Positions 13,996 through 48,936 are shown, counted from the first letter of the stretch. The stretch: DNA of 56,963 bases from Betaproteobacteria bacterium (GCA_043783305.1 JAYVZN010000098.1:1-56963); one strand, 5' to 3'. Numbers and translations: made by a program. The notes: generated by a model from the sequence alone, not told the origin.

Positions 13996-14028
13996 TCAAA
14001 ATATTTTTCGGCATGCACCGGCTAGGCG

Positions 14029-14829: not shown

Positions 14830-14847
14830 CTTTGTTTGTATTGGGTT

Positions 14848-16137
14848 TTAGAATTGCAGCTCGGCTTGCAGCCAGAATTTTTTGACATCTTTCGACAAGG
14901 CCTGAGTAGCGTTACGTGTCGCGTTTACCGCGTTGGTGTCGCCGCTATAGTTAGCGTACTTCACAGTGAGCGTGAGGTTTTTTTCGATTTTCTTTGTGGC
15001 CAGAAGATCCCATTCTTTGCCGTAGTTATAGCTTAAGTTATCACTCGAAAAATCATGATAGACCGCCAGCAGGTTGACCCCCCAGCCGGGTGAGCCGCCG
15101 ACGCTGACGAAGGCATCGCGGATACCGTCGCGCGGCGTGGTGAGAAATTTATCCGCCCAGCCGTTGAAGGCGTGCAGCGTCGCGAGCGGGGTGAAGAAGC
15201 CGTAAACGCCGTCGCCGCTCAGCACTTCGTAGTTGAACTTGACCTGCACGCCTTTGTAGTCCGCGCCGAGCATCGCAAACGCGTAGTCGGCATCGACTCG
15301 GGAGGTGCCGTCTTTGTAGCGGCTTTGATTCGCGTATTCGGCGGTGTAGAGCAATTTCCAGCCGTCGAACGGGTGGCCGCCGTCAAAACGCAGACCCAAG
15401 GTTTTATTCGAGTCGGTGACTGGAAAACCACCGTTTTGGCCCGGGTCGTAGTCCAACAAATAACTGTAGCCGACGATTTTTCCGGCCTTAAAGCCACTGT
15501 AGGCGACATTGAATAAATCGCTCTTCATGTGTAGATCGCTCAGCGTCGGATGGTCGGCACCGAAAAAACGATTCACATTGGTGACGTGCGCATAGTTAAT
15601 GGTGGTGGAAGGCAAGGATTTATTTTCCAGCGTGAAGGCATCGTAGGTTTGCTCGTTCTGGCGCCAGCCGACATTGCCGATGAAGCGGTGATTGTCGTAG
15701 GTAATAACTTGACGGCCATACTTGAGCAAGGTGCCCGGGATACCGCTATAGCTCAAGTAAGCTTGATTAATTTCGTTACCGGTGGGGTCGGCCACCACCG
15801 GATATTGGGTGCGGCCATTGTCGGTGCTGTTATAGCGCTCGCTGCCGATGACGCGCACATCCTCGAATTGCAGGAAAGCGCCGAAACCGTGGTACTCGCC
15901 GGTGAGGTAGCCAAGCTGTGTGCGCAAGGTAGAGGCTTCGGCGTTTTTGGCAAATCCTTCTTGGTCGACGCTTTCAAAGCGGTAACGCAAATTCAGCGAA
16001 GGTTTGCCGCCGGTCAGCGCTTCCATGAAATTGTCGCCGCTATAGGCTATCGGCGCGAGACCGGCCAGACAAATCCCGCTGAGTGCTGCTTGCGTCAAGA
16101 TGGAAAGATGTTTTTGTTTTACACGTTGCGTATTCAT
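14848..16137 (-). CDS. Outer-membrane beta-barrel porin embedded in the nitrate ABC operon (putative anion-selective channel)
   Basis: Signal peptide (LSILTQAALSGICLAGLAPIAYSG), alternating amphipathic strands, and a C-terminal aromatic residue (...WLQAELQF). It sits between the nrtB and nrtD homologues with gaps of 15-18 nt. Confidence 0.55.
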   Translation of the reverse strand: MNTQRVKQKHLSILTQAALSGICLAGLAPIAYSGDNFMEALTGGKPSLNLRYRFESVDQEGFAKNAEASTLRTQLGYLTGEYHGFGAFLQFEDVRVIGSERYNSTDNGRTQYPVVADPTGNEINQAYLSYSGIPGTLLKYGRQVITYDNHRFIGNVGWRQNEQTYDAFTLENKSLPSTTINYAHVTNVNRFFGADHPTLSDLHMKSDLFNVAYSGFKAGKIVGYSYLLDYDPGQNGGFPVTDSNKTLGLRFDGGHPFDGWKLLYTAEYANQSRYKDGTSRVDADYAFAMLGADYKGVQVKFNYEVLSGDGVYGFFTPLATLHAFNGWADKFLTTPRDGIRDAFVSVGGSPGWGVNLLAVYHDFSSDNLSYNYGKEWDLLATKKIEKNLTLTVKYANYSGDTNAVNATRNATQALSKDVKKFWLQAELQF

Positions 16138-16152
16138 TTAAAGCTCCCTTGG

Positions 16153-17031
16153 TTATTCGTAGTTAAAGCGTTTGGCCAGCAGTAATAGCCCATTTTCCAA
16201 CAGCAATCCAATAATACCAACGACAAAGATGGCGATGATGATGTGTGCCACATTCAAATTATTCCATTCGTCCCAAACCCAGAAACCGATGCCGACACCG
16301 CCAGTAAGCATTTCTGCGGCAACGATCACCAGCCAGGCGACACCGATGGAAAGCCGGATGCCGGTCATCAAATAAGGGAGTACTGCCGGGAATAAAATTT
16401 TGGTGAAAATTTTCCATTCGGAGAGCTTAAGCACTTTGGCCACATTCAGATAGTCCTGCGGTACGCGCGCAACACCGTCGGCAGTATTGATAATAATAGG
16501 CCAAATACTGGAAATAAAGATAACCCAGATACCGGCCGGGTTTGCGGCCTTGAAGACGAGCAGGCCGATGGGCAACCACACCAACGGCGAGACGGGCCGC
16601 AGCAGGCTGATAATAGGTGAAGTCATGCGATTGAAAAAAGTGAAGCGCCCGATCATGAAGCCCAGTGGAATGCCGATCAACGCCGCCATGCCGAAGCCGA
16701 TGCCGACGCGCTGTAGCGAGTTGAGCACATTCCAGCCGATGCCTTTATCGTTCGGCCCTTTATCGTAGAACGGGTCACTGAATAATTGCAGCGCAGACTC
16801 CCAAGTTTTAACCGGCCCGGGCAAGTTGGGGCTATGTTGCGCAATCACGGCCCACAAGCCGAGAAATAAAATAAAACCCAGGAGCGGTGGAACAATATGT
16901 TGCAGCATCGACCAGGATTTGCCTTTTATGCGCGGCGCGATGGCAGGCGCGGTTGCGACGGGCGGGCTGGCCTGCGGTGCGTTGACTTCAACCACGCTCA
17001 GCGCGGGTTTGATGGCGGCTACAGTGCTCAT
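16153..17031 (-). CDS. nrtB: ABC transporter permease (NrtB/CmpB-like)
   Basis: Binding-protein-dependent transport inner-membrane component with the EAA-like loop (GIRLSIGVAWLVIVAAEM). Confidence 0.85.
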   Translation of the reverse strand: MSTVAAIKPALSVVEVNAPQASPPVATAPAIAPRIKGKSWSMLQHIVPPLLGFILFLGLWAVIAQHSPNLPGPVKTWESALQLFSDPFYDKGPNDKGIGWNVLNSLQRVGIGFGMAALIGIPLGFMIGRFTFFNRMTSPIISLLRPVSPLVWLPIGLLVFKAANPAGIWVIFISSIWPIIINTADGVARVPQDYLNVAKVLKLSEWKIFTKILFPAVLPYLMTGIRLSIGVAWLVIVAAEMLTGGVGIGFWVWDEWNNLNVAHIIIAIFVVGIIGLLLENGLLLLAKRFNYE

Positions 17032-17054
17032 GATGTGCTCCTTGATAAAAATAA

Positions 17055-18329
17055 TTAAACCTTGATCTTGAAACCGTCGGCGTAACTCTTCGGATTTTTT
17101 GCATCCCAGGTCACGCCGTCGATCAGCTTGGCGCTACGCATCGGATCTTTGGGCACGGGTACTTTGACTTGTGCGGCGGCTTGTTTGTAGAGCTCGATCT
17201 GGTTTACTTTTTGGGCGACGGCCAAGTAATCCGGATGCGCTTTCAACAAGCCCCAACGTTTGTGCTGCGTGAGAAACCACATACCGTCGGAGAGGTAGGG
17301 AAAATTCACCGCGCCGTCGTTATAAAATTTCATGTAGTTCGGATCCTGCCATTTCTTACCGATACCGTTGTCGTACTGGCCGAGCATGCGGTCTTCCACC
17401 ACATCGAACGGGGCGTTGACATAAGCCTTATCCGCGATAATTTTGGCGACTTCGGAGCGATTGCTAAGCGTGTCGATGTATTTCGACGCCTCCAATACCG
17501 CCATCATCAGAGCGCGTGTGGTGTGGGGATATTTCGCGACAAATTCTGCGGTCGTGCCCAGTACTTTTTCCGGATGATCCTTCCAGATATCCTGCGTGGT
17601 CACGGCGGTGAAACCGATCTTGTCGGCAATGGCGCGCGCATTCCACGGCTCGCCGACGCAGTAGCCATCCATATTGCCGACGCGCATATTGGCCACCATC
17701 TGCGGTGGCGGCACGGTGATGGTCTTGACTTCGCTAAACGGATTGACCCCCTGCGCGGCCAGCCAATAGTAGAGCCACATCGCGTGGGTGCCGGTGGGGA
17801 AGGTTTGTGCGAAGGTGTATTCGCGCGGCTCTTTCTTGATGAGCGCAGCCAAGCTGGCACCGTCCTTTACACCTTTGTCGTGGAGCTGCTTGGAGAGCGT
17901 GATGGCTTGGCCATTATTGTTCAGCGTCATCAGCACGGACATATCTTTCTTCGGTCCGCCGATACCCAATTGCACACCGTAAAGCAAGCCGTAGAGCACG
18001 TGCGCTGCATCCAACTCGCCATTCACTAATTTATCCCGCACCCCGGCCCAGGAGGCCTCCTTGCTGGGCGTGATTTTAATGCCGTATTTTTTATCGAAGC
18101 CCAGTACCGAGGCGATGACGACCGAAGCGCAATCGGTTAATGGAATGAAACCGATTTTAACTTCAGATTTTTCCGGTGCGTCGGAGCCGGCCGCCCAAGC
18201 AGCGTTGCGGATCGCGTCCGGTACAAAACTCATGATGCCCGCCGCACCGGCTAGTGCGGTGCTTTTCTTTATAAAATCGCGGCGCGGTGTATTGATCGTG
18301 GTGGCATCGGGTGTGCGTTTATCTTTCAT
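17055..18329 (-). CDS. nrtA: Nitrate ABC transporter substrate-binding protein with twin-arginine signal (NrtA/NasF-like)
   Basis: Tat signal (PRRDFIKKSTALAGAAGIMSF), NMT1/NrtA-type periplasmic binding fold, and AGGAGA RBS ahead of ATG 18329. Confidence 0.85.
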   Translation of the reverse strand: MKDKRTPDATTINTPRRDFIKKSTALAGAAGIMSFVPDAIRNAAWAAGSDAPEKSEVKIGFIPLTDCASVVIASVLGFDKKYGIKITPSKEASWAGVRDKLVNGELDAAHVLYGLLYGVQLGIGGPKKDMSVLMTLNNNGQAITLSKQLHDKGVKDGASLAALIKKEPREYTFAQTFPTGTHAMWLYYWLAAQGVNPFSEVKTITVPPPQMVANMRVGNMDGYCVGEPWNARAIADKIGFTAVTTQDIWKDHPEKVLGTTAEFVAKYPHTTRALMMAVLEASKYIDTLSNRSEVAKIIADKAYVNAPFDVVEDRMLGQYDNGIGKKWQDPNYMKFYNDGAVNFPYLSDGMWFLTQHKRWGLLKAHPDYLAVAQKVNQIELYKQAAAQVKVPVPKDPMRSAKLIDGVTWDAKNPKSYADGFKIKV

Positions 18330-18516: not shown

Positions 18517-19134
18517 TTAGGTGAAAGCCTGCGCCATCTCGACAATTTGCGCCGCGATGTCGGCGAGCTTGGCATTGCGTTGCATCGCCATCTTACGCAT
18601 TAAGTTATAAGCCGCGTCTTCACTCACTTTCTTTTGCTGCATCACGATGCCTTTCGCACGCTCAATTAACTTACGCTCGGCAAGCTGATTTTGTGCAAGG
18701 CTTAAATCTTGTCGCAGCGCTTGATGTTCCTCAAAGCGCAGCATGGCGACTTGTAAAATCGGTTTAATGCGCTCCGGCGCAGTCCCTTTTACAACATACG
18801 AAGTGACCCCGGCGCGCATCGCCTGCTTCATTCGAGAGACATCATCGTCATCGGTAAAAAGCACGATGGGGCGTGGTTGATCGCGGCTAATCATGCACAC
18901 ATGCTCGAGCGTGTCGCGATCCGGCGCATCGGTATCGATGACGATCACATCCGGGTCCAATTGCGGCAAGCTATTTAACAAGTCGAGCGAGATCGACGCG
19001 CGTTGCAGTACCAAGTAATCGCTGGTTTGTAAGCTTTGGGCCAATAGAGCGCGCCGCTCAGGATTAGCGTCAACGATTAATACGCGCAATGGCGATGCAA
19101 TGGGAGAGGTCATATCCATACTTATAGCAACCAA
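18517..19134 (-). CDS. nasT: ANTAR-domain response regulator (NasT/AmiR-like nitrate-assimilation antiterminator)
   Basis: Receiver domain (LRVLIVDANPERRALL..., ...DVIVIDTDAPD...) plus a C-terminal ANTAR domain (LAERKLIERAKGIVMQQKKVSEDAAYNLMRKMAMQRNAKLADIA). Confidence 0.85.
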   Translation of the reverse strand: MVAISMDMTSPIASPLRVLIVDANPERRALLAQSLQTSDYLVLQRASISLDLLNSLPQLDPDVIVIDTDAPDRDTLEHVCMISRDQPRPIVLFTDDDDVSRMKQAMRAGVTSYVVKGTAPERIKPILQVAMLRFEEHQALRQDLSLAQNQLAERKLIERAKGIVMQQKKVSEDAAYNLMRKMAMQRNAKLADIAAQIVEMAQAFT

Positions 19135-19264
19135 CGTGCCAAGTCGAAGCTGGCTGAAAATCCCCGAAGCACCATCGGTAAACGCTATTTAACGGTATTC
19201 CAAGGCGCGTGCTGCACCATTCTGGGTGGCTCACATCAGGGAAGTGCACAGCAATGGTGCTGGG

Positions 19265-19600
19265 TTAGCGCTCCAACTTTTTACCAAGAAGATAAGCATC
19301 GACCATGCCGAACAGCCAGCACAGGGCGAGCACCCACGTGGCGGCATTCAGTATTTTATCGTCGGCGGTGGCTTGTAGTGTGACCGCGACTAGATGCTGT
19401 ATATCGAGTCCGCTACCCTCGGCTAAACTTTTTTCGATGACCCGGCGGGCTTGCTGCATTACTTGAAATAGCAAGAGGGTGAGGCTGATTAAACTAATTG
19501 CGATTAACGCGATGCCGCGCTGAAACGATTTGAGCAGGAGGTGGCCCGCCCCCGGAAAAATAACGGCGGACCACAGCAGCGCTTGGATGGATTTACGCAT
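19265..19600 (-). CDS. Small integral membrane protein (3 TM), unknown function
   Basis: 111 aa with hydrophobic segments AVIFPGAGHLLL, IALIAISLISLTLLLF and WVLALCWLFGMV. It lies 3 nt from the upstream Cache-like ORF. Confidence 0.4.
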   Translation of the reverse strand: MRKSIQALLWSAVIFPGAGHLLLKSFQRGIALIAISLISLTLLLFQVMQQARRVIEKSLAEGSGLDIQHLVAVTLQATADDKILNAATWVLALCWLFGMVDAYLLGKKLER

Positions 19601-19603
19601 GCG

Positions 19604-20539
19604 CTAGAACCAAAACGCGGTGTCCTTCAAGAGAAACTCGTCATACGGCATATAGTGCGAGCCGTCACAAGAGAACGTCAGGCTGATCATACCGTTAAAA
19701 ATATTGATCGAGGCGGTACGCAGATAAAAAGTCGGATCGGTGAGGCGTAAGGCTTGCAGCGTGGTGAGAATCGGCTGGATTTTATTCTCGGGAATGGTCG
19801 CATCGTGTGGATAGGAGCGCGCCGGAAACACCAAACAGATATCCGGGTCGCTCAAGGCTTCGTGATCCAAAATACGGTAGCGGTAAGGATCATCAATCGT
19901 CCACAGCGTCGCTTGGCTACTGGAAAAGTGGATCTGACATTGAAACACGCCGCGATTCGTCAGTAACTCTTCCAAGATGGATAAGGCCTGTGCAATATTG
20001 CCGTCCAAGGGACTATCGACCCGACATTGTTGAAACACCGCGCCGCGAATCGCCGGGTCGCCTTTCACCTGGCGCCAGTTACCGGGTTCTTCGTACAACT
20101 CCGCCGTAACCGGCAGATCACGCAAGTCGAAATCGGCGCCGAGATAGCCCAGGGTGTTGCCATCCGCGCGCACAACTTGCAGTGCGGTGAGCGAAGGCCG
20201 GTGATTAAGAATACTGATATACGCATCGGATAACAAAAACCCCCAGGCTGGAACCGCTTCCATCATGTAGGGACGGTTTGAACGATCACGTCCAAAGTGG
20301 CCGGGTATGACGCCGCTCGCGCCAATGTTGTCGCAAATTTGAACACCATCGGTGCCGACGCAGTACAGAAAAGCACTATGCGGTATATCGGCGAAGCCCT
20401 GCATCAGTACAGCTTCCAGTTGCGCACGATCATGCCAAACCGGCGGGCAACGCTCGGCCAACTGCGCTAACGGTTCGCGCAGTTGCCGCGCTAACTGTTC
20501 GCGCTGTAGATAAATACTTTCCTTCCAAGAAGTTTTCAT
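19604..20539 (-). CDS. Cytoplasmic Cache/PAS-like sensor-domain protein with uncharacterised C-terminal domain
   Basis: There is no signal peptide or TM. Residues about 40-190 resemble single-Cache domains (CVGTDGVQICD..., RSNRPYMMEAV..., DGNTLGYLGADFDLRDL). The C-terminal about 130 aa has no recognisable motif. Confidence 0.4.
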   Translation of the reverse strand: MKTSWKESIYLQREQLARQLREPLAQLAERCPPVWHDRAQLEAVLMQGFADIPHSAFLYCVGTDGVQICDNIGASGVIPGHFGRDRSNRPYMMEAVPAWGFLLSDAYISILNHRPSLTALQVVRADGNTLGYLGADFDLRDLPVTAELYEEPGNWRQVKGDPAIRGAVFQQCRVDSPLDGNIAQALSILEELLTNRGVFQCQIHFSSSQATLWTIDDPYRYRILDHEALSDPDICLVFPARSYPHDATIPENKIQPILTTLQALRLTDPTFYLRTASINIFNGMISLTFSCDGSHYMPYDEFLLKDTAFWF

Positions 20540-20740
20540 ACGTTTTTCAAGGGCTCGATAAAGTGGTCATGGTTAAATATGTTTCCGAAGTAATGCCGTC
20601 GTGCATCTGGTCGATAAGATACTACTGGGATGTAATAGTTCAAATACGTCGTGAGTGAGCGGTATAGTGCGCTTGGCCGAAGGGACGACGACCGTGGACT
20701 CGTTTCTCGTTTGAGTTATTTTCCATGGTTTTCATTTTCC

Positions 20741-20769
20741 TCTAAACCTAGAGAAAAAGCTGCCGATAT
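20741..20769 (+). promoter_or_regulatory. sigma28 (FliA)-like promoter candidate upstream of the STAS gene
   Basis: CTAAACCT-N13-GCCGATAT resembles the class-3 flagellar promoter consensus TAAAGTTT-N11-GCCGATAA. It lies 39 nt upstream of ATG 20808. Confidence 0.35.
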
Positions 20770-20807
20770 AGTGTCTATCTCCATGCTTATTCCGAACGAG
20801 GGCGATC

Positions 20808-21119
20808 ATGACTTCGAGCATTACCAATCATATCGGCGATCATAAAGCCACATTAACCATTAACGGGCGCTTTGATTTTTCCATTCATCGCGATTTTCGC
20901 GCAAACTACGAGGAAATCTTAGGCAGCCATGCGGTGAGCGAAATTGCGGTCGATTTGAAGAGTGTCGAATACGTTGATAGCTCGGCGCTCGGCATGCTAT
21001 TGCTATTGCGTGAAAAATCAATGGCGGAGAATATCAAGATGCGGCTTATTAATCCAACGCTTGCCGTGCGCCAAGTGTTGGAAATTGCAAATTTTGAAAA
21101 GTTATTCAGTATTACATAA
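20808..21119 (+). CDS. STAS-domain anti-sigma-factor antagonist (SpoIIAA/RsbV/HsbA-like)
   Basis: 103 aa with the STAS pattern (VDLKSVEYVDSSALGMLLLLREK); the conserved phosphorylatable Ser lies in DSSALG. Confidence 0.8.
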   Translation: MTSSITNHIGDHKATLTINGRFDFSIHRDFRANYEEILGSHAVSEIAVDLKSVEYVDSSALGMLLLLREKSMAENIKMRLINPTLAVRQVLEIANFEKLFSIT

Positions 21120-21235
21120 TAGTTAGCGTAAAAACCTCGCTGCCGCCCCAACTCTTTCAGTTACGGGCATAATCGTATTTTCCGCAATGTCGTTTTCCCC
21201 TACACCATGTCGAGTCCAACAAAAAAAGCGCCCGC

Positions 21236-21973
21236 TTGCTTGCTACGCTGACCCCCGTACAACTGGCGGCTTGCGCGGCGATTTTGGCCACGGCCTATCT
21301 CGCACGGGGTGTCACGGGTTTTGCCTCGGGGTTGATCGCGGTGCCGCTATTGGCTTTGCTGCTGCCGCTGACCCTGGTGGTACCTCTGATTGTTACGCTC
21401 GATTATCTCGCATCGATCAGCCAAGGTATTCATAGTCGCCAGCATATCCGCTGGCGGGAAATTGTAACGATTATTCCGTTTAGTCTGATGGGGGTGGCCA
21501 TCGCGCTATTGTTTCTGTCGCGCTCGGATGCGCTGTACCTTACCAAGGCACTGGGTTTATTTGTTATTTTGTTTGCCTTATTCACATTGTCCGGCTACAA
21601 GCCCAAAGCCAAATCAGCGCGTGCTTGGGGCGTACTGGCCGGCATATCCGGCGGTGTGATCGGCACGCTTTTCGGCACCGGCGGGCCCTTTTACGCCACT
21701 TATTTTAAAGCGCGGGGTTTAGGAAAATCTGCCTTTCGCGCGACCTTCGCGGCGATTTTTTTACTGGACGGCAGCGGGCGCTTGCTGGGTTATGCGTCCT
21801 CCGGGTTTTTGACGGCGGCATTTTTTACGTTACTGCTCGCCGCACTGCCGATTGCCGGAATTTTTTTGTATATCGGAGGCCGTGTTCACACCAAACTCAC
21901 GGAATCCGATTTTGAGCGTGCCATTAGTGTGTTGTTGATCGTGAGCGGAAGCGTACTATTGATCAAATTTTAG
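21236..21973 (+). CDS. TSUP-family (TauE/SafE) anion exporter-type membrane protein
   Basis: 245 aa, about 8 TM, with duplicated 4-TM halves and G-rich motifs (GVTGFASGLIAVPLL; GGVIGTLFGTGGP) typical of TauE/SafE. Confidence 0.8.
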   Translation: MLATLTPVQLAACAAILATAYLARGVTGFASGLIAVPLLALLLPLTLVVPLIVTLDYLASISQGIHSRQHIRWREIVTIIPFSLMGVAIALLFLSRSDALYLTKALGLFVILFALFTLSGYKPKAKSARAWGVLAGISGGVIGTLFGTGGPFYATYFKARGLGKSAFRATFAAIFLLDGSGRLLGYASSGFLTAAFFTLLLAALPIAGIFLYIGGRVHTKLTESDFERAISVLLIVSGSVLLIKF

Positions 21974-21989
21974 CTTGCCGTTGATCGAC

Positions 21990-23105
21990 CTACATACCCG
22001 ATGCGTAACGTTTCGGAGCGATGGCCTGCCAGCGATAAGGTGCTGCGTTAATCGGCTGCGCGCGTTGGTTAATGAGGTTGCTCAGCAGGCAGGCGCTAGC
22101 GGGTGCCATGCTTAAACCGTAACGGAAGTGCCCGCTATTGATATACAAATTTTCCAGTTGCGGATGCCGGTCGATAATCGGAATATTGTCCGGTGAGCCC
22201 GGGCGCAAACCCGCCCATTGCCGTACGATTTGCGCCTGTTTGAGTGCCGGTAAAAGGGTTGTGGCGCGATCCAGAAAAAGCGCCCCGGCTTCTTCCGTAG
22301 TGCTTTTGTCGAATCCCACATCCTCACGCGTACTACCGACCAGAATATGCCCGTCGCGTCGGGGAACCAAATAAATATCGTTTTGCCGGATAATTTTAGT
22401 GAGTAAGCCGGGTGCGTCTTTAAATAATAAAATTTGTCCGCGGATCGGTTTAATCTGCACCGTCTGCGCCCATTTTCCCAGTAAACGGCTGCTCCAGGCA
22501 CCGGCGGTCACTATAAAATTTTCGGCTGAAAAGGAGCCGCGTTGCGTCTCGATCGCCACTGCGCGATTACGGGCAACGCGGAAGCCCGTGACCTCTTCCT
22601 GCTCCCGAAATTTTACGCCCTGCAATTCGGCGGCGCGGCGGAGGGAGCGTATTAAACGCGGATTTCTAACCTGCGCAACTTGCGGCAGCCAGATCCCCGG
22701 GCTTTCTAAACCCAACTGAGGAATCAGCGTTTGTGCATCGACCCGCTCCATCGGCACATCGTAGCGTTCGCACCACGCCAAGGCTTTTTCTTCGCTGTAG
22801 TACGGATCGTATTTCTGTAGCACCAGCATGCCGTCCACTTGGTATTCCGGATCAATGCCGCTGGCGGCCGCAATGGCCGCGATCCAATCGGGATAAAGTT
22901 TCAAACTCCACTGCGTGAGATGATTCACCGCATCGGAATATTGCCAAGGCGGCAGCACGGACAAAATCCCGCTACCGGCCCAGGATGATTCGGCACCGAC
23001 GGCACCGCGATCCAGTACCGTTACTTGGGCTCCTTGGCGCGCAAATTCAAGGGCCGTCGCACAGCCGATAACGCCGGCACCGATCACAAGGTAGTCTGAG
23101 TTCAT
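21990..23105 (-). CDS. FAD-dependent oxidoreductase (DAO family; glycine/D-amino-acid oxidase-like)
   Basis: Rossmann FAD motif directly after ATG 23105 (MNSDYLVIGAGVIGCATALEFARQGAQVTVLDRG). The ORF-track extension to 23288 carries no domain and lacks an RBS. Confidence 0.75.
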   Translation of the reverse strand: MNSDYLVIGAGVIGCATALEFARQGAQVTVLDRGAVGAESSWAGSGILSVLPPWQYSDAVNHLTQWSLKLYPDWIAAIAAASGIDPEYQVDGMLVLQKYDPYYSEEKALAWCERYDVPMERVDAQTLIPQLGLESPGIWLPQVAQVRNPRLIRSLRRAAELQGVKFREQEEVTGFRVARNRAVAIETQRGSFSAENFIVTAGAWSSRLLGKWAQTVQIKPIRGQILLFKDAPGLLTKIIRQNDIYLVPRRDGHILVGSTREDVGFDKSTTEEAGALFLDRATTLLPALKQAQIVRQWAGLRPGSPDNIPIIDRHPQLENLYINSGHFRYGLSMAPASACLLSNLINQRAQPINAAPYRWQAIAPKRYASGM

Positions 23106-23413
23106 GAAAGTTTCCCAGGTTAAAACTGCCGTCCAATTAAGTTGTCTTCTGCGCAACCCTTTGTGCCGCGCGGCAGCACAGAAGCACATTAAGGATACCG
23201 TCATGAATAGTAGATCAAAATAACCCGAGCATAATAAAGTTTTTTTAATCGAAAACCATGCGGGCTTTATCCGCGTGTTTAGGCTCAATTTATGGCGCAG
23301 CTAACCGTTAAGTAATTCGTAGCGCTCGCGAAGGTCGCCCCGCAATTGACTGCATAACTATATAACTATTTGGTTATAAGGGTAACAAAACGGATCAAAC
23401 TGAGGTAAAGAAA

Positions 23414-24274
23414 ATGTTAAAAAAACCACGCAAGCTTCATGGTATCGGCATTTATTTTTGCGGCATCATGTTGGGGCTAATCGGTGGCGTGCAAGCGCAG
23501 GATAAAGTCTCGACCTTCGGTGTTTTAAATCAGCGCAGCATTAGCTTGACGGCGGAATATTGGAATCCGATATTAAATTACGTGAGCCTGAAAAGCGGTG
23601 TCCCGCTCCGCTTGTTATTGGCAAAAACAGCACCGGAAACCGATGCCATGATCGGAGAGGGGCAATTTGATTTTATTTATTCGAATACTGTTTTTACCAA
23701 TCGTAATTACACGGTAGGGTATCAAGTCTTTACCCGCCCCATCGGGCCAGCGCTGCAAGGGCAAATCGTCACCCTGGAACATTCCACTATACGATCATTG
23801 CGCGACCTGGAGCAACGCGAGGTCGGCTTCCCCTCCACGGCTGCCTTGGCCGGATATGCCCTACCGATGAATGCGCTATTGGAACAAGGCATCACGGTAA
23901 AACCGGTGTTCGCAGGCAATCAAGAAGGCATCATGGCGCAATTAAAATTCGGTCGCGTACTGGCGGCGGGGGTGAATTCAATCGTCATGCAGGATTACGC
24001 GCAACGCGAAAAAATAGCTTATCGGGTATTGTGGACCTCGGCACCGTACCAGAATTTACCCATTGCAGCGCATCCGCGTGTTCCGAAAAAAAGTGTGGCA
24101 GCCGTGCGTGCGGCATTTCTCAGTATGCACCAGGATGCCGAAGGTTTGAAAATACTACAAACCAGTGCAGCGCTGATCCAACAAACGCCGCCGCTCGGGT
24201 TTATTCCGTCCAGCAATCATGACTACCAAAATTATCGTGATTTTTTTAAGATAAACCGAATCAAGGCACCCTAA
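23414..24274 (+). CDS. PhnD/SsuA-like periplasmic solute-binding protein (signalling-associated)
   Basis: Signal peptide (IYFCGIMLGLIGGVQA) and a phosphonate-binding-type fold. Its stop lies 3 nt before the GTG of the downstream sensor protein. Confidence 0.7.
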   Translation: MLKKPRKLHGIGIYFCGIMLGLIGGVQAQDKVSTFGVLNQRSISLTAEYWNPILNYVSLKSGVPLRLLLAKTAPETDAMIGEGQFDFIYSNTVFTNRNYTVGYQVFTRPIGPALQGQIVTLEHSTIRSLRDLEQREVGFPSTAALAGYALPMNALLEQGITVKPVFAGNQEGIMAQLKFGRVLAAGVNSIVMQDYAQREKIAYRVLWTSAPYQNLPIAAHPRVPKKSVAAVRAAFLSMHQDAEGLKILQTSAALIQQTPPLGFIPSSNHDYQNYRDFFKINRIKAP

Positions 24275-24277
24275 GCC

Positions 24278-26659
24278 GTGGTGCGCTACTTTCATCGACA
24301 CCTCTGGAAAAAACGGAGTTTAATTGTCCGCCTGCTTATTCTGTCCAGCGTATTGTTCGTTCTGGGCGGCAGCTTTTTATTGCACCGGATGATCGAGCAG
24401 GTCGTGGACAATCGGCGCGTTACCTTGTTGGAAAACTTACAAGGCGAAACGCGGGATATAGCCAATAGTCTGGTGGAGTACGCCGTCACCGGCGACTATG
24501 CAAGTATTCAACAAGTGTTGATTAAGCGCGCCAAGCGCCGCGATATCCATTCGGTAGAATGGACGGACACAGCGGGAAGAGTCATTCGTGCCGATAACAA
24601 CGTGCTGTCGGTACAAGCACCCGCTTGGTTCATTCGCTGGATCAATATTCCAGCATTTTATGTTACCACCGCCGTTACCGTCGGCGGCAGCGCTTACGGC
24701 AACGTATTGCTGACACCGACGCATGTCCCCTCGATAAATTTTTTATGGCAGACGTTTAAGCAACAGGTGCTTATTCTCCTACTGAGCGTAGCGGTGTTTT
24801 ACAGCGTGATGATTTTATTTTTATGGTACGAGTTACGCCCGCTTCAGGCTTTGGTGAAGGGCACGATACGATTCGGCGAAGGCGATCATTCGATCCGTAT
24901 CAAACCTGCCAGCGCGCCTGAAATCAGCGCCAGTGTCGCGGCATTTAATCGCATGGCGGATATGATTCAAAAATTACTGGTATCGACCCAGGAAAAAGAA
25001 AATCATCTGCACGCCGTCATGAACAGCATCGATGATGCAATTATCATCATGGATGAGCGGCATGTTATCGAATCATTCAATCACGCCATGCCGCGATTGT
25101 TTGCTAATTTACCGGATGAATTATCCGGGCGGCCATTGATGTCGCTATTGGAAGGCGCGTGGGAAGAAAAAACTAATCGATCAGAGGACGCTTACTCGGG
25201 ATTGGAAACGGAAACCCGTGGGCGGCGCGGTGACGGCGCCTCGTTTCCGATTAACCTCAGAATTAAACCGCTGCAATCACAAGGGCGCTCGTTATTCATG
25301 GCGAACGTCCAAGATATTAGTAAACGCCGCAAGGCCGAGGCGCTGCTGGCGCAGGGTCGGGAGCGGCTCGAAATCTATCAGGCCACAACGGAGCAGGAGT
25401 TGCGGCTGGCGCACCATGTGTTCCAAACCATCACCAGTGAAAGTGCTAGAAAACCGGCCCCGCTGGAACTTTGGACGGAGCCGATGGGCCTGTTCAACGG
25501 CGATTTATTGCTGCATGAATTCAGTCCTTCCGGTGAGCTGCGTGTCATGTTGTGCGATTTCATGGGGCATGGCTTGGGTGCTGCAATCGGCGCGATTCCC
25601 GTTTCGGATGTTTTTCTCGGCATGAGCCGGAAAGGCTATGGAATTCCCGATATCGCCAGCGAAATTAATAACAAGTTAAAACGCATATTGCCGACCGGGC
25701 ATTTTTGCGCCGCCTGTTTGATCAGCATTAATCAAGACGAACGCGGTTTGGAAATTTGGAATGGCGGTTTACCGCCCGTCCTGATTATGGACGAAAATAA
25801 AAAAGTTATGCGGCGTGTGTTGTCGAGCAAATTGCCGCTGGGGATTGCATCTCCCGGCGAATTTGATGCGCGCACGGAAATATTTTCCGCGCAAGGCGTA
25901 CATTCGGCGTTTATTTACAGCGATGGCTTGATCGAAACGCGCAATGCGCAAGGCGAAATGCTCGGGCAAGCGACCTTGGAGAAGATGATCGAAACGGAAT
26001 CGGGCGCCGGGTCCTGGCTGGACAGCGTCAAGGCGCAGATAGTTAATTTTTTCGGAGATTGTGCGTTAGGCGATGATCTGTCGCTGCTGCATATCTATTG
26101 CGACACCGCTCATGCCGTACCCGAGATTGTTGCTGAGCGCTGCCCTGAAACGGGTGTTAACAACGAATCGGCACACGGCAGTTGGCGCGTCGAATTTCAA
26201 TTGAGTGGTGAGATGATTAAAAATTGCACGCCCATACCGCTGCTCATGAGCTGGCTAATGGGCTTGAATTTTACGGAGCTCCAGCGCTCGCACATTTACA
26301 CCATCTTGTCCGAGTTGATTAATAATTCCATCGATCATGGATTGTTGAAGATGGATTCCGGGCTTAAATCCACGCCGGACGGTTTTGAAAGTTATTATGC
26401 GACGCGCCAGCATCTCTTAGATGCGCTTAACGAGGGAATGCTCACGGTACAGTTAAGCCTGAAGCAAGGTAGCCATAAAAAAACCATCCAGATTGCGGTT
26501 AAAGATACCGGCAGCGGATTTAATTTCAGCCAAGTTTTTTCGCGGCTGGACGGCAACAATAAAAATTTCGGGCGCGGCCTCGCCTTGGTGAATTCCTTAA
26601 GCAGCAAACTGCACTATATCGGCTGCGGCAATAGCGTCATGGTGGAGTACACCGAATAA
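24278..26659 (+). CDS. Membrane sensor TM-periplasmic loop-TM-HAMP-PAS-PP2C(SpoIIE/RsbU-type phosphatase)-HATPase(RsbW-type anti-sigma kinase) fusion protein
   Basis: GTG start. TM1 is LILSSVLFVLGGSFLL and TM2 is LILLLSVAVFYSVMILFLWY, followed by a HAMP domain. The PAS region is LHAVMNSIDDAIIIMDERHVIESFN. The SpoIIE/PP2C region has the motifs FNGDLLLHEF, VMLCDFMGHGLGAAIGAIPV and IYSDGLIETRN. The C-terminal GHKL kinase of the RsbW/SpoIIAB type has ILSELINNSIDHGLL, VKDTGSGFNF and GRGLALVNSLSS. Confidence 0.8.
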   Translation: MVRYFHRHLWKKRSLIVRLLILSSVLFVLGGSFLLHRMIEQVVDNRRVTLLENLQGETRDIANSLVEYAVTGDYASIQQVLIKRAKRRDIHSVEWTDTAGRVIRADNNVLSVQAPAWFIRWINIPAFYVTTAVTVGGSAYGNVLLTPTHVPSINFLWQTFKQQVLILLLSVAVFYSVMILFLWYELRPLQALVKGTIRFGEGDHSIRIKPASAPEISASVAAFNRMADMIQKLLVSTQEKENHLHAVMNSIDDAIIIMDERHVIESFNHAMPRLFANLPDELSGRPLMSLLEGAWEEKTNRSEDAYSGLETETRGRRGDGASFPINLRIKPLQSQGRSLFMANVQDISKRRKAEALLAQGRERLEIYQATTEQELRLAHHVFQTITSESARKPAPLELWTEPMGLFNGDLLLHEFSPSGELRVMLCDFMGHGLGAAIGAIPVSDVFLGMSRKGYGIPDIASEINNKLKRILPTGHFCAACLISINQDERGLEIWNGGLPPVLIMDENKKVMRRVLSSKLPLGIASPGEFDARTEIFSAQGVHSAFIYSDGLIETRNAQGEMLGQATLEKMIETESGAGSWLDSVKAQIVNFFGDCALGDDLSLLHIYCDTAHAVPEIVAERCPETGVNNESAHGSWRVEFQLSGEMIKNCTPIPLLMSWLMGLNFTELQRSHIYTILSELINNSIDHGLLKMDSGLKSTPDGFESYYATRQHLLDALNEGMLTVQLSLKQGSHKKTIQIAVKDTGSGFNFSQVFSRLDGNNKNFGRGLALVNSLSSKLHYIGCGNSVMVEYTE

Positions 26660-26935
26660 CCCACATAATTAGCATGGATATCCCATTGTATTTCATGAGA
26701 AATATCTGTTTTTTTGTTGAAAAACCATGCAGATATCGGTGCATGACCGTGCTATCCGCAACCCCGCATTATTTCCGCAACATATTTTTCATAATTCACT
26801 CAAGTTGGCTTTTCTAAAGTCGCTACCTAATTGGCAAGTCAGCGCGACGAATTGTTTCGTTTGGAAAATGCATCGCGGACTGACGGTTTACACGTTAGAG
26901 CCACAAGGGAAAATTACTTAGCCTCTATAGAAGCC

Positions 26936-28165
26936 ATGAAGCACAACAGACCACAGATGATTATTCTCGCAACGGGTATCGGCACAATCGCCTTGACCGG
27001 TTTGGCGGCATGGCTCATGGGTGCGCATTGGCAAGCCAGTGCGGGTGTTTATGCGATGTTCGCTCTAAGCCTTGCTGCGGTTATCGCCGTCGCTTATTTT
27101 CAGATCGTTAAAATACAAACCACATCGAACGATGAAGTGATTCACTCCCCGCCGGATATGAATGAGGTTAGACAGCAAGTAGATCATTTGCTGCATGGTT
27201 TAAAGCAAAGTTTTAATCTACAGCATACGCAGGCGAACGACGAATTAGAGCAGGTGCGCACAATAATTGCCGATGCCGGAGAAAAACTGGTGGCGAGCTT
27301 TACCAGCTTAGAATCGCATACGCGGGCGCAACAAGCGCTGGCCCTTAATTTGACCGGAGCACCGCAGGATAAAACGCCTTGCGAAGCGGTCGATTTTGAA
27401 GCATTCATCGCCGAGATTTCCAAAATGCTGATTGTCTTCGTCGAAACCACGATAGACACCAGTCGCGTCGGGATGGGGCTGGTGGGCATGATGGACGACA
27501 TCACCGCGCGCGTGAATACGATCATCGGCGTACTCAATGAAATTGAGTCCATCGCCAAACAAACTAACCTGCTGGCGCTCAATGCGGCCATCGAAGCCGC
27601 ACGCGCCGGTGAGGCGGGGCGCGGCTTTGCGGTAGTGGCGGATGAGGTGCGTGCCTTGTCGACGCGTTCCAGCCTGTTTTCCAGCCAAATACGCGAGTAC
27701 ATGGGGCAGATGCATCGCTCGGTGATTGAAGCCGAGCAGTCGATCAACGGCATGGCTTCGAAAGATATGCGCTTCGCACTCGATTCTAAATTACGTGTGG
27801 AAAGTATGTTGGGCAGTGTGCGCGCAATCAATCGGCAAATGGTCATGACGGTGGATCAACTCACCGACATCGCCAAGGAAGTGGAAAGCGAAGTGCGGGT
27901 AACGGTGACCTCGCTGCAATTTCAGGATTTAGCAACGCAATTGGTCACGCGCGTCGGGGATCGCATCGGCGCGATGTCCGGTGCCTTAAATGAAATCGAA
28001 CAGATTCAGATTCAGCACACGCCGACAGCCATTCAAGATTTACCGGCGTTAAGTCGATATTTAAAACAGTACGACACGGTTCTGGAGAAAGCGAATGCAG
28101 GGCCGATGGGTAAAGGTCCGGTCTCACAGCACCAAATGTCCGCGGGCGAAGTAGATTTGTTTTGA
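26936..28165 (+). CDS. Methyl-accepting chemotaxis protein with two closely spaced TM helices and no periplasmic sensor domain
   Basis: MCP signalling tip [37 protein letters not shown]. The first in-frame ATG is at 26936; the ORF-track start at 26831 is a TTG, so the start is uncertain. Confidence 0.75.
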
Positions 28166-28192
28166 ACAATGTAACGGATTAAGGAAGACATC

Positions 28193-28558
28193 ATGGCAAA
28201 GACGATTTTAGCAGTTGATGATTCAGCGTCCATTCGGCAGATGGTAGCCTTTACGCTCAAGGGCGCGGGCTACGAAGTGGTCGAAGCCGTGGACGGTGAG
28301 GATGGATTGAATAAAGCCAAAGCCAAGTCATTCAATTTGGTGTTGACCGATCAGAACATGCCGAAAATGGATGGCATCACCTTAATCAAATCTTTACGCA
28401 CCTTGGCGCAATACAAAGTCACGCCGATTTTGGTATTAACTACCGAAGCGGGCGATGCCATGAAAACCCAAGGGAAAGCGGCCGGCGCTACCGGTTGGTT
28501 GGTTAAACCGTTCGACCCGCAAAAGTTAATGGATGTCGTGAAAAAGGTGATCGGCTAA
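28193..28558 (+). CDS. cheY: Chemotaxis response regulator CheY
   Basis: 121-aa receiver with DD...D...T...K signature residues (LAVDDSASIRQ, LVLTDQNMPKMDG, LVLTTEA, KP). Confidence 0.9.
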   Translation: MAKTILAVDDSASIRQMVAFTLKGAGYEVVEAVDGEDGLNKAKAKSFNLVLTDQNMPKMDGITLIKSLRTLAQYKVTPILVLTTEAGDAMKTQGKAAGATGWLVKPFDPQKLMDVVKKVIG

Positions 28559-28605
28559 ACACCGCACACCCTCTTAAATTTTCGATTATTTTCAGCGAGC
28601 CCACC

Positions 28606-30720
28606 ATGACAGTCGATATGAGCCAGTTCTACGAAGTATTTTTTGAAGAAGCCGCAGAACATTTAGCTTCGATGGAAACCTTGTTGCTTAAATTGGATGT
28701 GAATGCACCCGATCCCGACGACTTGAATGCGATATTCCGTGCCGCGCATTCGATCAAAGGCGGGAGCGGTACTTTCGGTTTTACCGACATGACCGAAGTC
28801 ACCCATATTTTAGAAAATTTATTGGATCGACTGCGCAAAAATGAGCTTGTATTGACACAAGCCATGATCGACATCTTTCTGGTGGCGGGTGATGTCTTGA
28901 AAAGTCAGCTTGATTTCCATCGCGGCGGTGCCGCCGTGGATGCGGTCGTTGTGGCGGAAATCTGCGCTACCCTGGCGCAATTGACCAACAACGAGAATGC
29001 ACCTGCGGTAGCGGCCGCTCCGGCAGCCGTCAATTCTGGGGCGCACGCGGCTAAAAATCTTAATCCGCCTAAAACACGCTTTCACCTCGCCTTCAAACGG
29101 GTTGCCAAAGCCAAATTGGAAAATCTATTACCGGTACTCGCGCTGCAGGGCGATTTAAGCGCCCCGCAGGAGGCCGCGGACAGCGCGCTGCAATCGTTTA
29201 CCTTCGACACTGTGCTGGGCGAGTCCGAGTTATGGGAGATGCTCGAGTTTGTGGTGAGCCGCAAACAGGTCAGTATCAAAGTCGGCGAAATCATTGCAGC
29301 TTCCAGTGAGTCAGCCGAGCCGGAAGACGAAGGCTTTGGACTTTTTCTACCGGAAGAAGAATTACACGCGCAGCTTGAAGCCGAGCAAGGTTTTGGTTTG
29401 TTTGAAGGCGCACCCGGCTCGGAGCCGATGCGCAATCCCGGTCGTCGCGAGGGCGATCAAAGTGAGTCCGTGGCGGTGCCGGGGCGGCGCGATAACGACC
29501 GCGTGGCGGTTGCTGCCAGTGCCGAAGCGTCCTCGATCCGCGTCGGTGTCGATAAAGTCGATAACTTAATTAATCTGGTCGGCGAGCTGGTCATCAGCCA
29601 AGCCATGCTGGCGCAGACCGCGTCGCGTGTCGACCCGGTGCTCTTCGAAAGTTTGATGACGAGTGTCGCGCAACTCGAACGCAATACACGCGACTTGCAA
29701 GAGTCGGTCATGTCGATCCGCATGCTGCCGATCAGTTTTGTGTTCAATCGTTTTCCACGCGTGGTGCGTGATGTTGCCACCAAGCTGGGTAAGCAGGTGG
29801 AGCTGGTTACGATCGGCGAAGGCACGGAGTTGGACAAAGGTTTGATCGAAAAAATCGCCGATCCGCTCACGCACTTGGTGCGCAACAGCCTGGATCACGG
29901 CATCGAATCGCCGGAAAAACGCAGCGCCGCCGGTAAAAATCCCAAAGGCACACTGACCCTGCGCGCCTCACATCAGGGCGGCAGCATTGTGATCGAAGTA
30001 TCGGATGATGGTGCGGGTTTGAGCCGCGAAAGAATTCTAGCCAAGGCGCAAGAGCGCGGGCTGCCGTCGCACGAAGGCATGTCCGATCACGAAGTATGGC
30101 AAATGATTTTTGCGCCGGGATTTTCTACCGCTGAGGTGGTAACCGATGTTTCCGGTCGCGGTGTCGGCATGGATGTGGTGAAACGCAACATCGAAGGCAT
30201 GGGCGGTCGTGTGGAGCTGGCTTCCACACCCGGTGCCGGTGCTAAAGTCACCATTCGTCTGCCGCTTACGCTGGCAATCCTGGACGGCATGTCGATCGCG
30301 GTCGGCAATGAAGTATTTATTATCCCGCTCACCTATATTGTGGAATCGCTGCAACCCACCGTTGAGGATATCAAAACCATTTCCAGCAGCGGCCAAGTAG
30401 TACAGGTGCGCGGTGAATATCTGCCGCTGGTGCCGCTGCACTCGGTATTTAAAATCGAAGCGAAAGCACACGAACCGCACCAAGGCATTATCGTCATTAT
30501 CGAATCCGACGATGGAAAAATCGCTTTACTGGTCGATGCTTTGGTGGGCCAGCACCAGGTGGTGATTAAGAGTCTCGAAGGCAACTACCGCAAGGTAGCG
30601 GCGGTGTCTGGGGCAACCATCATGGGAGATGGCAGGGTGGCGCTGATTTTAGATGTGGTGGCGCTGGTTAGGGGTAATCAACGTGTAGGTCAGAGTCTGG
30701 AATTGGGCGTCGCGGCTTAG
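28606..30720 (+). CDS. cheA: Chemotaxis histidine kinase CheA
   Basis: P1 Hpt ([13 protein letters not shown]), P3/P4 ([33 protein letters not shown]) and a C-terminal CheW-like P5 domain. Confidence 0.9.
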
Positions 30721-48650: not shown

Positions 48651-48936
48651 CGCGTATTTTGGGGTGGTGGATTGATCCTCCCGGGTTACGGTCGCGATGT
48701 AACCCGGGTCGAGCCGGTGAAACGGGGGGTACGCCTTTGCATGCGTTGTCGATCCCATTTCCCGGGTATTTTACGCGGGCGTGTGCGGTAACATCGAATC
48801 CAAAATGCGAATTCAGGGAGCGATGGATCTAAGCGGGATATCTAGTACGCCAGGGCCGATTGAAAATAACGGTATAGGCGATCACTTGCCCTCCCGCCAA
48901 TCGAGGTGATTCGCTCCACTTATCCGCACACTGCGC

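Follow-up and report, generated by a model that had tools for sequence, protein, structure and literature searches.

Partner switches of the HsbR/HsbA and CrsR/CrsA type govern sigma-S and the choice between a motile and a sessile life, and the signals that drive them are described in the literature as still unknown. In CrsR and HsbR, the GHKL domain sequesters sigma-S until the dephosphorylated STAS protein displaces it (PMC6482189); dephosphorylated HsbA binds FlgM and frees sigma28, phosphorylated HsbA binds the cyclase HsbD, and HsbR has been reported to use both its phosphatase and its kinase activity on HsbA (PMC6482189). The locus analysed here lies in a stretch of 56,963 nt from Betaproteobacteria bacterium (GCA_043783305.1 JAYVZN010000098.1:1-56963), the whole of which is called the window below. 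It includes a gene for a periplasmic binding protein (23414–24274), a gene for a membrane sensor phosphatase/kinase (24278–26659) and, further upstream, a gene for a small STAS protein (20808–21119), all on the plus strand. It is considered probable that the three genes make up a partner-switching input module of the CrsR/HsbR family, consisting of a secreted PhnD-fold binding protein, an inner-membrane sensor and a small STAS protein.

Of the described systems, CrsR–CrsA of Shewanella oneidensis comes closest; its che1 locus has a published content of six Che proteins, two methyl-accepting chemotaxis proteins (MCPs), CrsR and CrsA, the Che1 array being called F7. Compared by this published description, it shares with the window a PP2C phosphatase fused to a C-terminal GHKL domain, a separate STAS protein, and a che cluster with two MCPs and CheY/A/W/R/D/B. 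CrsR is cytoplasmic and carries an N-terminal receiver (REC), whereas the sensor of the window has two transmembrane (TM) segments, a LapD/MoxY domain, HAMP, PAS and an accompanying binding-protein gene. The HsbR–HsbA–HptB system of Pseudomonas is similar in its PP2C-GHKL homology, in its STAS protein and in its link to motility genes; however, the receiver of HsbR takes its input from HptB and hybrid kinases, while no receiver or Hpt gene is found at the window module. In addition, the P. putida hsbA promoter is of the sigma70 type, whereas the STAS gene of the window has a conserved sigma28-type element.

Several other systems share a part of the design. In Rv1364c of Mycobacterium tuberculosis, PAS, PP2C and an RsbW-type kinase stand in one chain, and its crystal structure 3ke6 is among the two best fold matches of the sensor; but Rv1364c is cytoplasmic and only 14–15% identical, carries STAS as a further domain of the same chain, and lacks both a periplasmic sensor and a binding protein. 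In SiaA–SiaB–SiaC of Pseudomonas aeruginosa, control of biofilm output runs through a STAS-like protein on which a membrane-bound PP2C sensor and a kinase act, and the SiaA PP2C domain is a fold match; but the kinase SiaB is separate, the target is a diguanylate cyclase, there is no binding protein, and the sequences resemble each other only in the HAMP region and the PP2C fold. On the input side, AioX–AioS and ArrX–ArrS, which sense arsenic oxyanions, also have a signalling PF12974 binding protein encoded with a membrane sensor, but their output is a histidine kinase with a response regulator, the identity in structural alignment is about 19%, and the pocket Ser-x-Ser of those binding proteins is not kept here; AioS is listed with an sCache-like periplasmic domain, whereas the window sensor has one of the LapD/MoxY type. 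XAC2383 is likewise a PhnD-fold periplasmic protein paired with a membrane signalling enzyme, reportedly described with its diguanylate cyclase by Teixeira in 2018 (J Biol Chem 293:10767). Its structures are among the fold and profile matches of the binding protein, but its output is a diguanylate cyclase, and by sequence it is only a weak match to the family profile (E 8e-4).

That is to say, bifunctional PP2C-kinases (HsbR, CrsR, Rv1364c), a membrane PP2C sensor (SiaA) and signalling binding proteins (AioX, ArrX, XAC2383) are already known, and so is a single chain with two opposing activities. The novelty lies in the input module and in its combination with the rest: a receiver-less membrane switch of the CrsR/HsbR type gated by a binding protein, of chimeric origin and very narrow distribution. 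A coarse literature search for a binding protein combined with a partner switch brought up nothing relevant.

The phosphatase-kinase core, its STAS partner and the chemotaxis cluster

The search for homologues of the sensor covered 5.8 billion proteins. After nine members of its own family (eight near full length and one fragment of 464 aa), the next-best matches are REC-SpoIIE-HATPase_c_2 proteins of about 570 aa, which span the C-terminal 57% of the sensor at 30–43% identity, with E values from 1e-66 down to 1e-114. Many of them come from Pseudomonas, and some are named HptB-dependent response regulator in their source; the HsbR-type proteins of Pseudomonas match at E 1e-66 to 1e-75, with 30–34% identity across the whole PP2C-GHKL unit. 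The best representative, a REC-PP2C-HATPase_c_2 protein (P0198), is 42% identical over 454 residues in a nearly gap-free alignment, which begins where its receiver ends. One Pseudomonas match is located in a flagellar cluster in the order fliJ–STAS–(REC-PP2C-kinase)–Hpt, and the hsbA–hsbR–hptB arrangement described for P. putida has the same order. The likeness to HsbR, which the sequence-only reading had presented as a shared domain logic, therefore goes deeper: sensor residues ~340–792 are truly homologous to the receiver-PP2C-kinase proteins of the HsbR/CrsR family. The PP2C metal-binding Asp residues, the GHKL ATP-binding boxes, the whole-unit homology and a linked STAS protein with Ser58 are all present, and of the sequence features that mark this family only the receiver is missing.

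The PP2C-GHKL family also has other inputs, namely REC-PAS, four proteins in which Pfam detects no N-terminal domain, and two, P0212 and P0246, that begin with a multi-TM stretch, and the lack of a receiver is therefore not unique to this sensor. In P0212 and P0246 an N-terminus of 170–200 aa with several hydrophobic segments replaces the receiver, so that membrane-embedded input variants of the CrsR/HsbR core exist elsewhere. A paralogous PP2C-HATPase_c_2 group, mostly from Methylomonas, was also seen (L029, L030, L032–L037 and L045), with no STAS gene within ±8 kb; L032 and L033, the two examined for che genes, are without a che cluster, and L032 is without a Pfam-detected receiver.

The STAS gene (20808–21119, plus strand) encodes a single-domain protein of 103 aa, an anti-sigma-factor antagonist of the HsbA/CrsA type (PF01740 at E 2.5e-13, with PF13466 and TIGR00377). 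It is 48% identical to the STAS protein beside Pseudomonas hsbR (the HsbA orthologue), and the DSSALGMLLLLR motif is identical between them. Nine STAS orthologues all carry Ser58 and the motif Y-x-DSSALGMLL without change, and DSSALG aligns with DSSGLG of SpoIIAA (1th8) and DSAGLG of TM1442. In SpoIIAA the phosphorylated residue is the first Ser of this motif, and Ser58 is predicted from the alignment to be the phospho-acceptor of the STAS protein. The proposal that this distant STAS protein is the partner of the sensor gains support from synteny, from the identity to the Pseudomonas HsbA orthologue and from the invariant DSSALGMLL, which make the partnership likely.

The link between the STAS gene and the gene pair is kept in four lineages (L003–L006) at 57–94% identity, and STAS, binding protein and sensor stand together at homologue loci with 72%, 60% and 57% sensor identity. 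L003 is arranged like the window. In L004 the STAS gene lies directly beside binding protein–sensor–MCP–che, and in L005 and L006 the order is STAS–thiO (minus strand)–binding protein–sensor, with the che cluster and MCP replaced by ketosynthase genes. In the window, a TauE-family gene and an FAD oxidoreductase gene stand between STAS and the binding-protein gene; the latter enzyme is glycine oxidase ThiO (TIGR02352, 291 bits against 251). Both are missing in L004 and TauE is missing in L005, so that the intervening genes are passengers, and ThiO and TauE were ruled out as parts of the system. Two genes divergent from STAS (311 aa and 111 aa, 19265–20539, minus strand) have no confident family match; they are 89% and 76% identical in L003 and absent next to STAS in L004 and L005.

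Upstream of the STAS gene lies a promoter-like element of the sigma28 (FliA) type, TAAACCTA-N11-GCCGATAT, at 20743–20769 on the plus strand, 38 nt ahead of the start codon, in agreement with the earlier claim of a sigma28-like promoter on this gene. Its conservation is established: L003, L004 and L005 keep both boxes despite divergence in the spacer and flanks. The exact pattern has one match in the 57-kb window, and with one mismatch there are six matches against 1.09 expected. Each locus of the family has a single match, which always precedes STAS, and about 50 further loci yielded only one match between them. Such a promoter would fit a tie of the STAS gene to the flagellar regulon. A second, weaker sigma28-like element, TCAAGTTG-N11-GTCGCTAC, is found at 26800–26826 (plus strand), upstream of the MCP/che operon and outside the sensor operon, and is kept as TAAAGTTA-N11-GTCGCTAC in L003 and as TCAAGTTA-N11-GTCGTTAA in L004. 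There is no sigma28-like motif ahead of the binding-protein gene; therefore the sensor operon is flanked by FliA-type promoters and has none of its own. A generic scan for sigma70 promoters and terminators over 20400–27100 gave no more sites than shuffled sequences, and an Rfam scan of 19000–29000 gave no match.

The chemosensory cluster starts at 26936, immediately downstream of the sensor gene, as the sequence-only reading had placed it, and extends to 35816 on the plus strand. It encodes a hairpin-TM MCP (409 aa), CheY, CheA, CheW, a 4HB-HAMP MCP, CheR, CheD and CheB, so that the order in the window is STAS ... binding protein–sensor–MCP409–CheY–CheA–CheW–MCP–CheR–CheD–CheB. The 409-aa MCP (26936–28165, plus strand) has a pair of TM segments with only a few residues between them and lacks a periplasmic domain. 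One genome per species was scanned for 185,579 species with two short exact peptide patterns, by which distant relatives could be missed. The scan returned 43 loci, 36 of them matching only the C-terminal half of the sensor (residues ~340–792) and seven only the N-terminal half. The 36 C-half loci come mainly from Methylococcales and other gammaproteobacterial metagenome-assembled genomes (MAGs). A STAS gene 41–51% identical to that of the window stands immediately upstream in 25 of them, and 17 show the order MCP–(CheW)–CheR–CheD–CheB–MCP(409-like)–STAS–(REC-PP2C-kinase), with CheR, CheD, CheB and long MCP 42–58% identical to those of the window. The closest REC-type relative with readable context (P0011, locus L056; 41% identity) has the same gene order as these 17. 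The 409-like MCP is thus a constant neighbour of STAS and the PP2C-kinase in the 17 genome loci plus L056, which recalls McpA beside crsA/crsR in Shewanella che1. Since CrsR/CrsA of Shewanella che1 is the closest described system, the position of the sensor beside che genes is ancestral and not incidental.

The contiguity of 409-like MCP, STAS and PP2C-kinase at the end of these che clusters is also what speaks for another explanation, in which the module tunes the neighbouring chemosensory array instead of a sigma factor, and the STAS protein, according to its phosphorylation state, binds the 409-aa MCP or CheA/CheW; the sensor with its binding protein would in that case feed the array as an additional input. 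The window does keep that MCP directly downstream of the sensor, and for Campylobacterota it has been suggested that a REC-PP2C-kinase and STAS pair acts on a chemoreceptor (PMC9239204). However, L005 and L006 keep the STAS–binding protein–sensor triad though the che cluster and MCP are gone, the homologous Pseudomonas pair lies in a flagellar cluster without MCP or che genes, and the partners of the characterised proteins are RpoS for CrsR and HsbR, and FlgM or HsbD for HsbA (PMC6482189). Tuning of the array is accordingly held to be unlikely.

Architecture and origin of the sensor

The sensor gene starts with GTG and encodes 793 aa, and the start position is identical in all seven full-length homologues. 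The presence of a two-TM periplasmic loop, HAMP, PAS, PP2C and an RsbW-type GHKL domain in one protein, as first read from the sequence, was borne out by Pfam, hydropathy and an AlphaFold2 (AF2) model, and this architecture is established; the periplasmic loop could be defined further as a domain of the LapD/MoxY type. That domain (LapD_MoxY_N, PF16448; residues 45–157, 24410–24748, plus strand) scores 35.4 bits against a cut-off of 25, is flanked by TM segments at about residues 12–39 and 160–186 in the hydropathy profile, and is followed by HAMP, as in sensors of the LapD/MoxY type. Weak NCBIfam matches to LapD and DgcN/YfiN run across the same region. In the AF2 model, whose mean predicted local distance difference test score (pLDDT) is 80, residues 74–147 form an alpha/beta domain with a pLDDT of about 90. 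HAMP (residues 183–231) and PAS (residues 243–348) follow at 24824–25321 (plus strand) by Pfam. The PAS domain resembles that of FixL, but in the alignment to FixL a seven-residue segment bearing the haem-ligating His is deleted; a FixL-type haem-binding oxygen sensor was therefore ruled out. Behind PAS, a linker of 43 residues (348–390; 25319–25447, plus strand) is modelled by AF2 as a single uninterrupted helix leading to PP2C.

The SpoIIE/RsbU-type PP2C domain (PF07228, E 1e-31) covers residues 418–606 by Pfam and 396–607 by fold (25529–26095, plus strand), and its fold matches include Rv1364c, RssB, SiaA and SpoIIE. The RsbW/SpoIIAB-type GHKL domain, a serine kinase/anti-sigma domain (PF13581), covers residues 657–787 by Pfam and 636–792 by fold (26246–26638, plus strand). 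The catalytic motifs of both domains are intact: in PP2C, D409, D427, G430-H431-G432, D549-G550 and D599-D600, and in GHKL, the N-box (E679, N683, H687, G688), G1 box (D743, G745, G747) and G2 box (G765, R766, G767), are kept in at least 90% of 39 homologues. In the fold comparison, the RsbU and RsbW domains of Rv1364c (3ke6) align with the AF2 model over 412 columns at E 2e-12. Whether the C-terminus is GHKL had been named beforehand as a point of doubt, and it is settled in favour of GHKL: the identity is backed by motif conservation, by the HsbR-type homology and by the Rv1364c fold match. Neither Pfam nor NCBIfam gives a Response_reg match in the sensor, residues 1–348 being occupied by TM/LapD_MoxY_N/TM/HAMP/PAS. 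The protein is therefore not a response regulator, and works like the core of the CrsR/HsbR family. There is also no STAS domain fused to the C-terminal side of the PP2C-kinase unit; the chain ends with GHKL at residue 793, and STAS is a separate gene.

It is conceivable that only one of the two activities is real. GHKL would then be a pure anti-sigma or docking domain, or PP2C would be a pseudo-phosphatase as in enterobacterial RssB, and the sensor would amount to a plain phosphatase or to an anti-sigma factor gated by ligand. The marginal HATPase_c_2 score (27.9 against 27.4 bits) points in this direction, as do the inactive PP2C-fold proteins in the fold neighbourhood, RssB structures being among the top fold matches. 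But the four metal-binding Asp positions, GHG and the N, G1 and G2 boxes reach the conservation given above with the whole family included, and both activities of HsbR have been reported on HsbA (PMC6482189), which makes a single activity improbable. The description of the sensor as a self-contained partner switch holds in part: the domains for both activities are in one chain, but the STAS protein has a gene of its own, and the window contains neither a sigma-factor gene nor one for FlgM.

The N-terminal half has relatives of its own. The seven N-half loci of the genome scan match residues ~8–381 only and come from betaproteobacterial and other MAGs (Rhodocyclaceae, Sulfuricella, Hydrogenophilales and Steroidobacteraceae); the relatives are LapD_MoxY_N-HAMP-PAS sensors ending in HisKA-HATPase_c-REC(-Hpt) or GGDEF-EAL. 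Upstream DNA could be read for six of the seven, and in four of these a binding-protein gene 47–56% identical to that of the window comes directly before the sensor gene. The binding-protein family itself has more than 1,100 members at E<=1e-20, the named ones mostly from Sulfuricella, Sulfuritalea, Sulfurimicrobium and relatives. For the two closest non-family binding proteins that were looked up (63–67% identity), the next gene encodes a sensor kinase of some 750 aa with LapD_MoxY_N-type, HAMP and PAS domains, and the one after it a REC-PAS-GGDEF-EAL regulator, with gaps between binding protein and kinase of 3 nt in Sulfuricella (L053) and 37 nt in the other (L052). In Sulfuricella, where the binding protein is 63% identical and its gene ends 3 nt before that of the histidine kinase, this kinase is 32% identical to the sensor over residues 10–365. 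In an isolate, Janthinobacterium sp. 17J80-10 (CP035311.1, L055), the binding-protein gene overlaps an LapD_MoxY_N-PAS-PAS-GGDEF-EAL gene by 4 nt. The pairing of binding protein and LapD_MoxY_N domain is consequently seen with histidine kinase, histidine kinase-REC-Hpt and GGDEF-EAL outputs, and the motifs GDYASIQQ and APAWF are common to the sensor and the binding-protein-linked histidine kinases. These uncharacterised sensors of Betaproteobacteria (L053, L052, L040–L042, L046 and L055) resemble the window in their binding protein (43–67% identity), in the sensor N-half (26–33%) and in the equally tight coupling of the two genes, but differ in their output, which is HisKA-HATPase_c with or without REC-Hpt or else GGDEF-EAL, and they have no STAS partner. 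On sequence grounds, the N-half (residues ~8–365) and the binding protein match a common betaproteobacterial module which otherwise drives histidine kinases or GGDEF-EAL proteins.

The homology of each half is therefore established, and with it the chimeric origin. Homology of the N-half stops at residue 365 and that of the C-half starts at 339–342, which places the junction at about residues 340–365, in the helix leaving PAS. The sensor is thus a chimera: a CrsR-type protein of a chemotaxis cluster has had its receiver exchanged for a binding-protein-dependent membrane sensor. The fusion of a sensor of this kind with the PP2C-GHKL core is rare. In the two-pattern scan of the species genomes, no relative with both halves was found. 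A HMMER search against 1.84 billion representatives gave, among the best 150 matches, a single full-length one (P0003, 1301 bits, one 50%-identity cluster), and the next match has 388 bits and covers residues 342–792 only; analogues under about 242 bits fall outside these 150.

The binding protein and its coupling to the sensor

The binding-protein gene (23414–24274, plus strand) starts with ATG and encodes a periplasmic PhnD-fold solute-binding protein of 286 aa, the proposed co-sensor, which matches Phosphonate-bd (PF12974) at E 5e-39. The hydropathy profile shows a hydrophobic leader at the N-terminus, which we read as a signal peptide of about residues 1–28 ending VQA|QD. The TAA stop codon (24272–24274) is followed by a gap of 3 nt and then by the GTG of the sensor; the 3-nt spacing reported at the outset agrees with both the coordinates of the reading frames and the position of TAA. 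The same spacing is found in L003, L004, L005 and L053, and the translational coupling of the binding protein to the membrane sensor is established. Upstream of the gene, the block CAATTTATGGCGCAGCTAACCGTTAA at 23286–23311 (plus strand) is shared almost exactly with L003, and L005 carries CTTAACGGTTAGG in the matching region. The TAAC-N-GTTA inverted repeat found upstream may be a regulator binding site, for which it is a candidate.

The protein is not a true PhnD phosphonate transporter protein. This was ruled out by scores far under the cut-offs, 43.3 against 261.1 bits for PhnD (TIGR03431) and 48.5 against 112.05 for TIGR01098, and by the lack of transporter genes close by: no ABC permease or ATPase gene adjoins the binding-protein gene in the window, nor at L003–L006, L052, L053 or L055. 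A secreted PF12974 protein in one operon with a sensor and without cognate ABC genes nearby is also what characterises pairs of the AioX/AioS type. The AF2 model (pLDDT 88) has ArrX, PtxB and AioX as its best structural neighbours, and superposes on ArrX, PtxB, AioX and PhnD with template-modelling scores of about 0.7–0.8. The nearest solved sequence is ArrX (E 9e-7 for the single sequence, 4e-11 for the family profile).

In AioX and PhnD, a Ser-x-Ser in the pocket contacts the oxyanion, and it has been reported to be conserved in ArrX. In the binding protein of the window it aligns to Ala144-Leu-Ala146 (23843–23851). Across the family, Ala144 is nearly invariant, and the positions of the PhnD/AioX/ArrX pocket serines are Ala or variable. 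The change from Ser-x-Ser to Ala-Leu-Ala means that the pocket chemistry differs from that of known PF12974 proteins, and since Ala144 is nearly invariant and Ser-x-Ser is not kept, the ligand need not be a phosph(on)ate-type oxyanion.

The sequence-only reading had presumed that the binding protein controls the sensor. This has obtained indirect support, in that the tight gene coupling recurs across three LapD_MoxY_N outputs with no ABC genes nearby, and such control now seems plausible. That the binding protein is instead an ordinary transport protein or unrelated, the sensor responding through its own periplasmic, PAS or membrane domains, is very improbable: the PF12974 family is named for ABC phosphonate transport and the LapD_MoxY_N sensors at L044 and L048 are without an adjacent binding-protein gene, but a spacing of 3 nt (window, L003, L004, L005, L053) or 37 nt (L052) or a 4-nt overlap (L055) persists across three output types, no permease or ATPase genes stand at those loci, the scores are far under the PhnD cut-offs, and the closest solved relative, ArrX, is a signalling protein.

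Proposed signal route and its meaning

In the proposed mechanism of the three-part module, the binding protein would capture a small periplasmic ligand and, in its ligand-bound (or free) form, would dock on the LapD/MoxY-type periplasmic domain of the dimeric sensor. The model for this docking is arsenite-bound AioX, which has been proposed to act on AioS. The signal would pass from TM2 through HAMP, PAS and the long helical linker to the switch region of PP2C; for PPM phosphatases with REC, HAMP or PAS inputs, signalling from the linker to the PP2C switch has been proposed. There it would set the balance between the PP2C phosphatase and the RsbW-type kinase, both acting on Ser58 of STAS. Dephosphorylated STAS would displace a sigma factor from GHKL (sigma-S in CrsR/CrsA and HsbR/HsbA) and/or bind FlgM, freeing sigma28, and phosphorylated STAS would be released to other partners. 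In this way the receiver input, which in CrsR/HsbR is served by CheA or an Hpt phosphorelay, would be replaced by direct ligand sensing, and an extracellular chemical could flip a switch of the CrsR/HsbR type directly, without a phosphorelay. The sign of regulation, STAS as the substrate, and the sigma factor or FlgM as the target are suggested by analogy with the characterised systems.

Several observations weigh against this mechanism. The gene linkage of the three parts is established and suggests a contact between binding protein and sensor, but two of the six informative N-half relatives (L044 and L048) have no adjacent binding-protein gene. The pocket serines of PhnD, AioX and ArrX are not kept in this binding-protein family, and the protein may act as a ligand-free adaptor. 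The HATPase_c_2 (PF13581) score is barely over its threshold. In addition, the STAS gene of the window is 2.3 kb from the operon, with the TauE-family gene and thiO between and with its own promoter, and there are no sigma-factor, FlgM or flagellar genes in the 57-kb window.

The most specific form of the mechanism is put forward only tentatively, as a possibility on the doubtful side. In it, the sensor would be a membrane-tethered anti-sigma factor gated by the binding protein: GHKL would hold sigma-S (or another sigma factor) at the membrane, the ligand would flip the PP2C/kinase balance, and dephosphorylated STAS would free the sigma factor and/or capture FlgM.

Some further features of the window were recorded. 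A protein of 417 aa with a GGDEF domain (residues ~240–405, matching DgcN/YfiN) is encoded at 47505–48758 on the minus strand, 21 kb downstream; it is the only HsbD-like cyclase candidate in the window, and linkage with the module is not indicated. At 5630–7324 (plus strand), a 564-aa fusion of PP2C_2 and a eukaryotic-type Pkinase (Pfam) is another protein with opposing activities. The region 11062–18329 (minus strand) holds a kinase with PilJ, Hpt and HATPase_c, a REC protein, CheX, and an NMT1-type ABC transporter operon including a porin of the Alginate_exp family; together with an ANTAR response regulator (NasT-like) at 18517–19134 (minus strand), which completes it, this is an unusual sensing neighbourhood of the nitrate/nitrite type. 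An RHS/YD-repeat fragment (43–450, plus strand) at the window start continues a large RHS gene upstream, and an RND pump in the window is 86–90% identical to Sulfuriferula proteins, by which single gene the source may be a betaproteobacterium similar to Sulfuricellaceae.

As regards the meaning for the family, the replacement of a phosphorelay input by one soluble binding protein gives a chemical handle on the PP2C/kinase balance of switches of the HsbR/HsbA and CrsR/CrsA type. It also adds a receptor class to the binding-protein-dependent receptors, with one cassette (binding protein/LapD-like/HAMP/PAS) used on three outputs. If the reading as a gated anti-sigma factor is true, a periplasmic binding protein would here feed directly into a partner switch for the first time, with no His-Asp step, and the module would offer a phylogenetically traceable natural case in which one sensor cassette drives a histidine kinase, a GGDEF-EAL protein or a PPM phosphatase through one linker design. 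In that event, sigma28-driven expression of STAS would close a feedback loop with the flagellar regulon.

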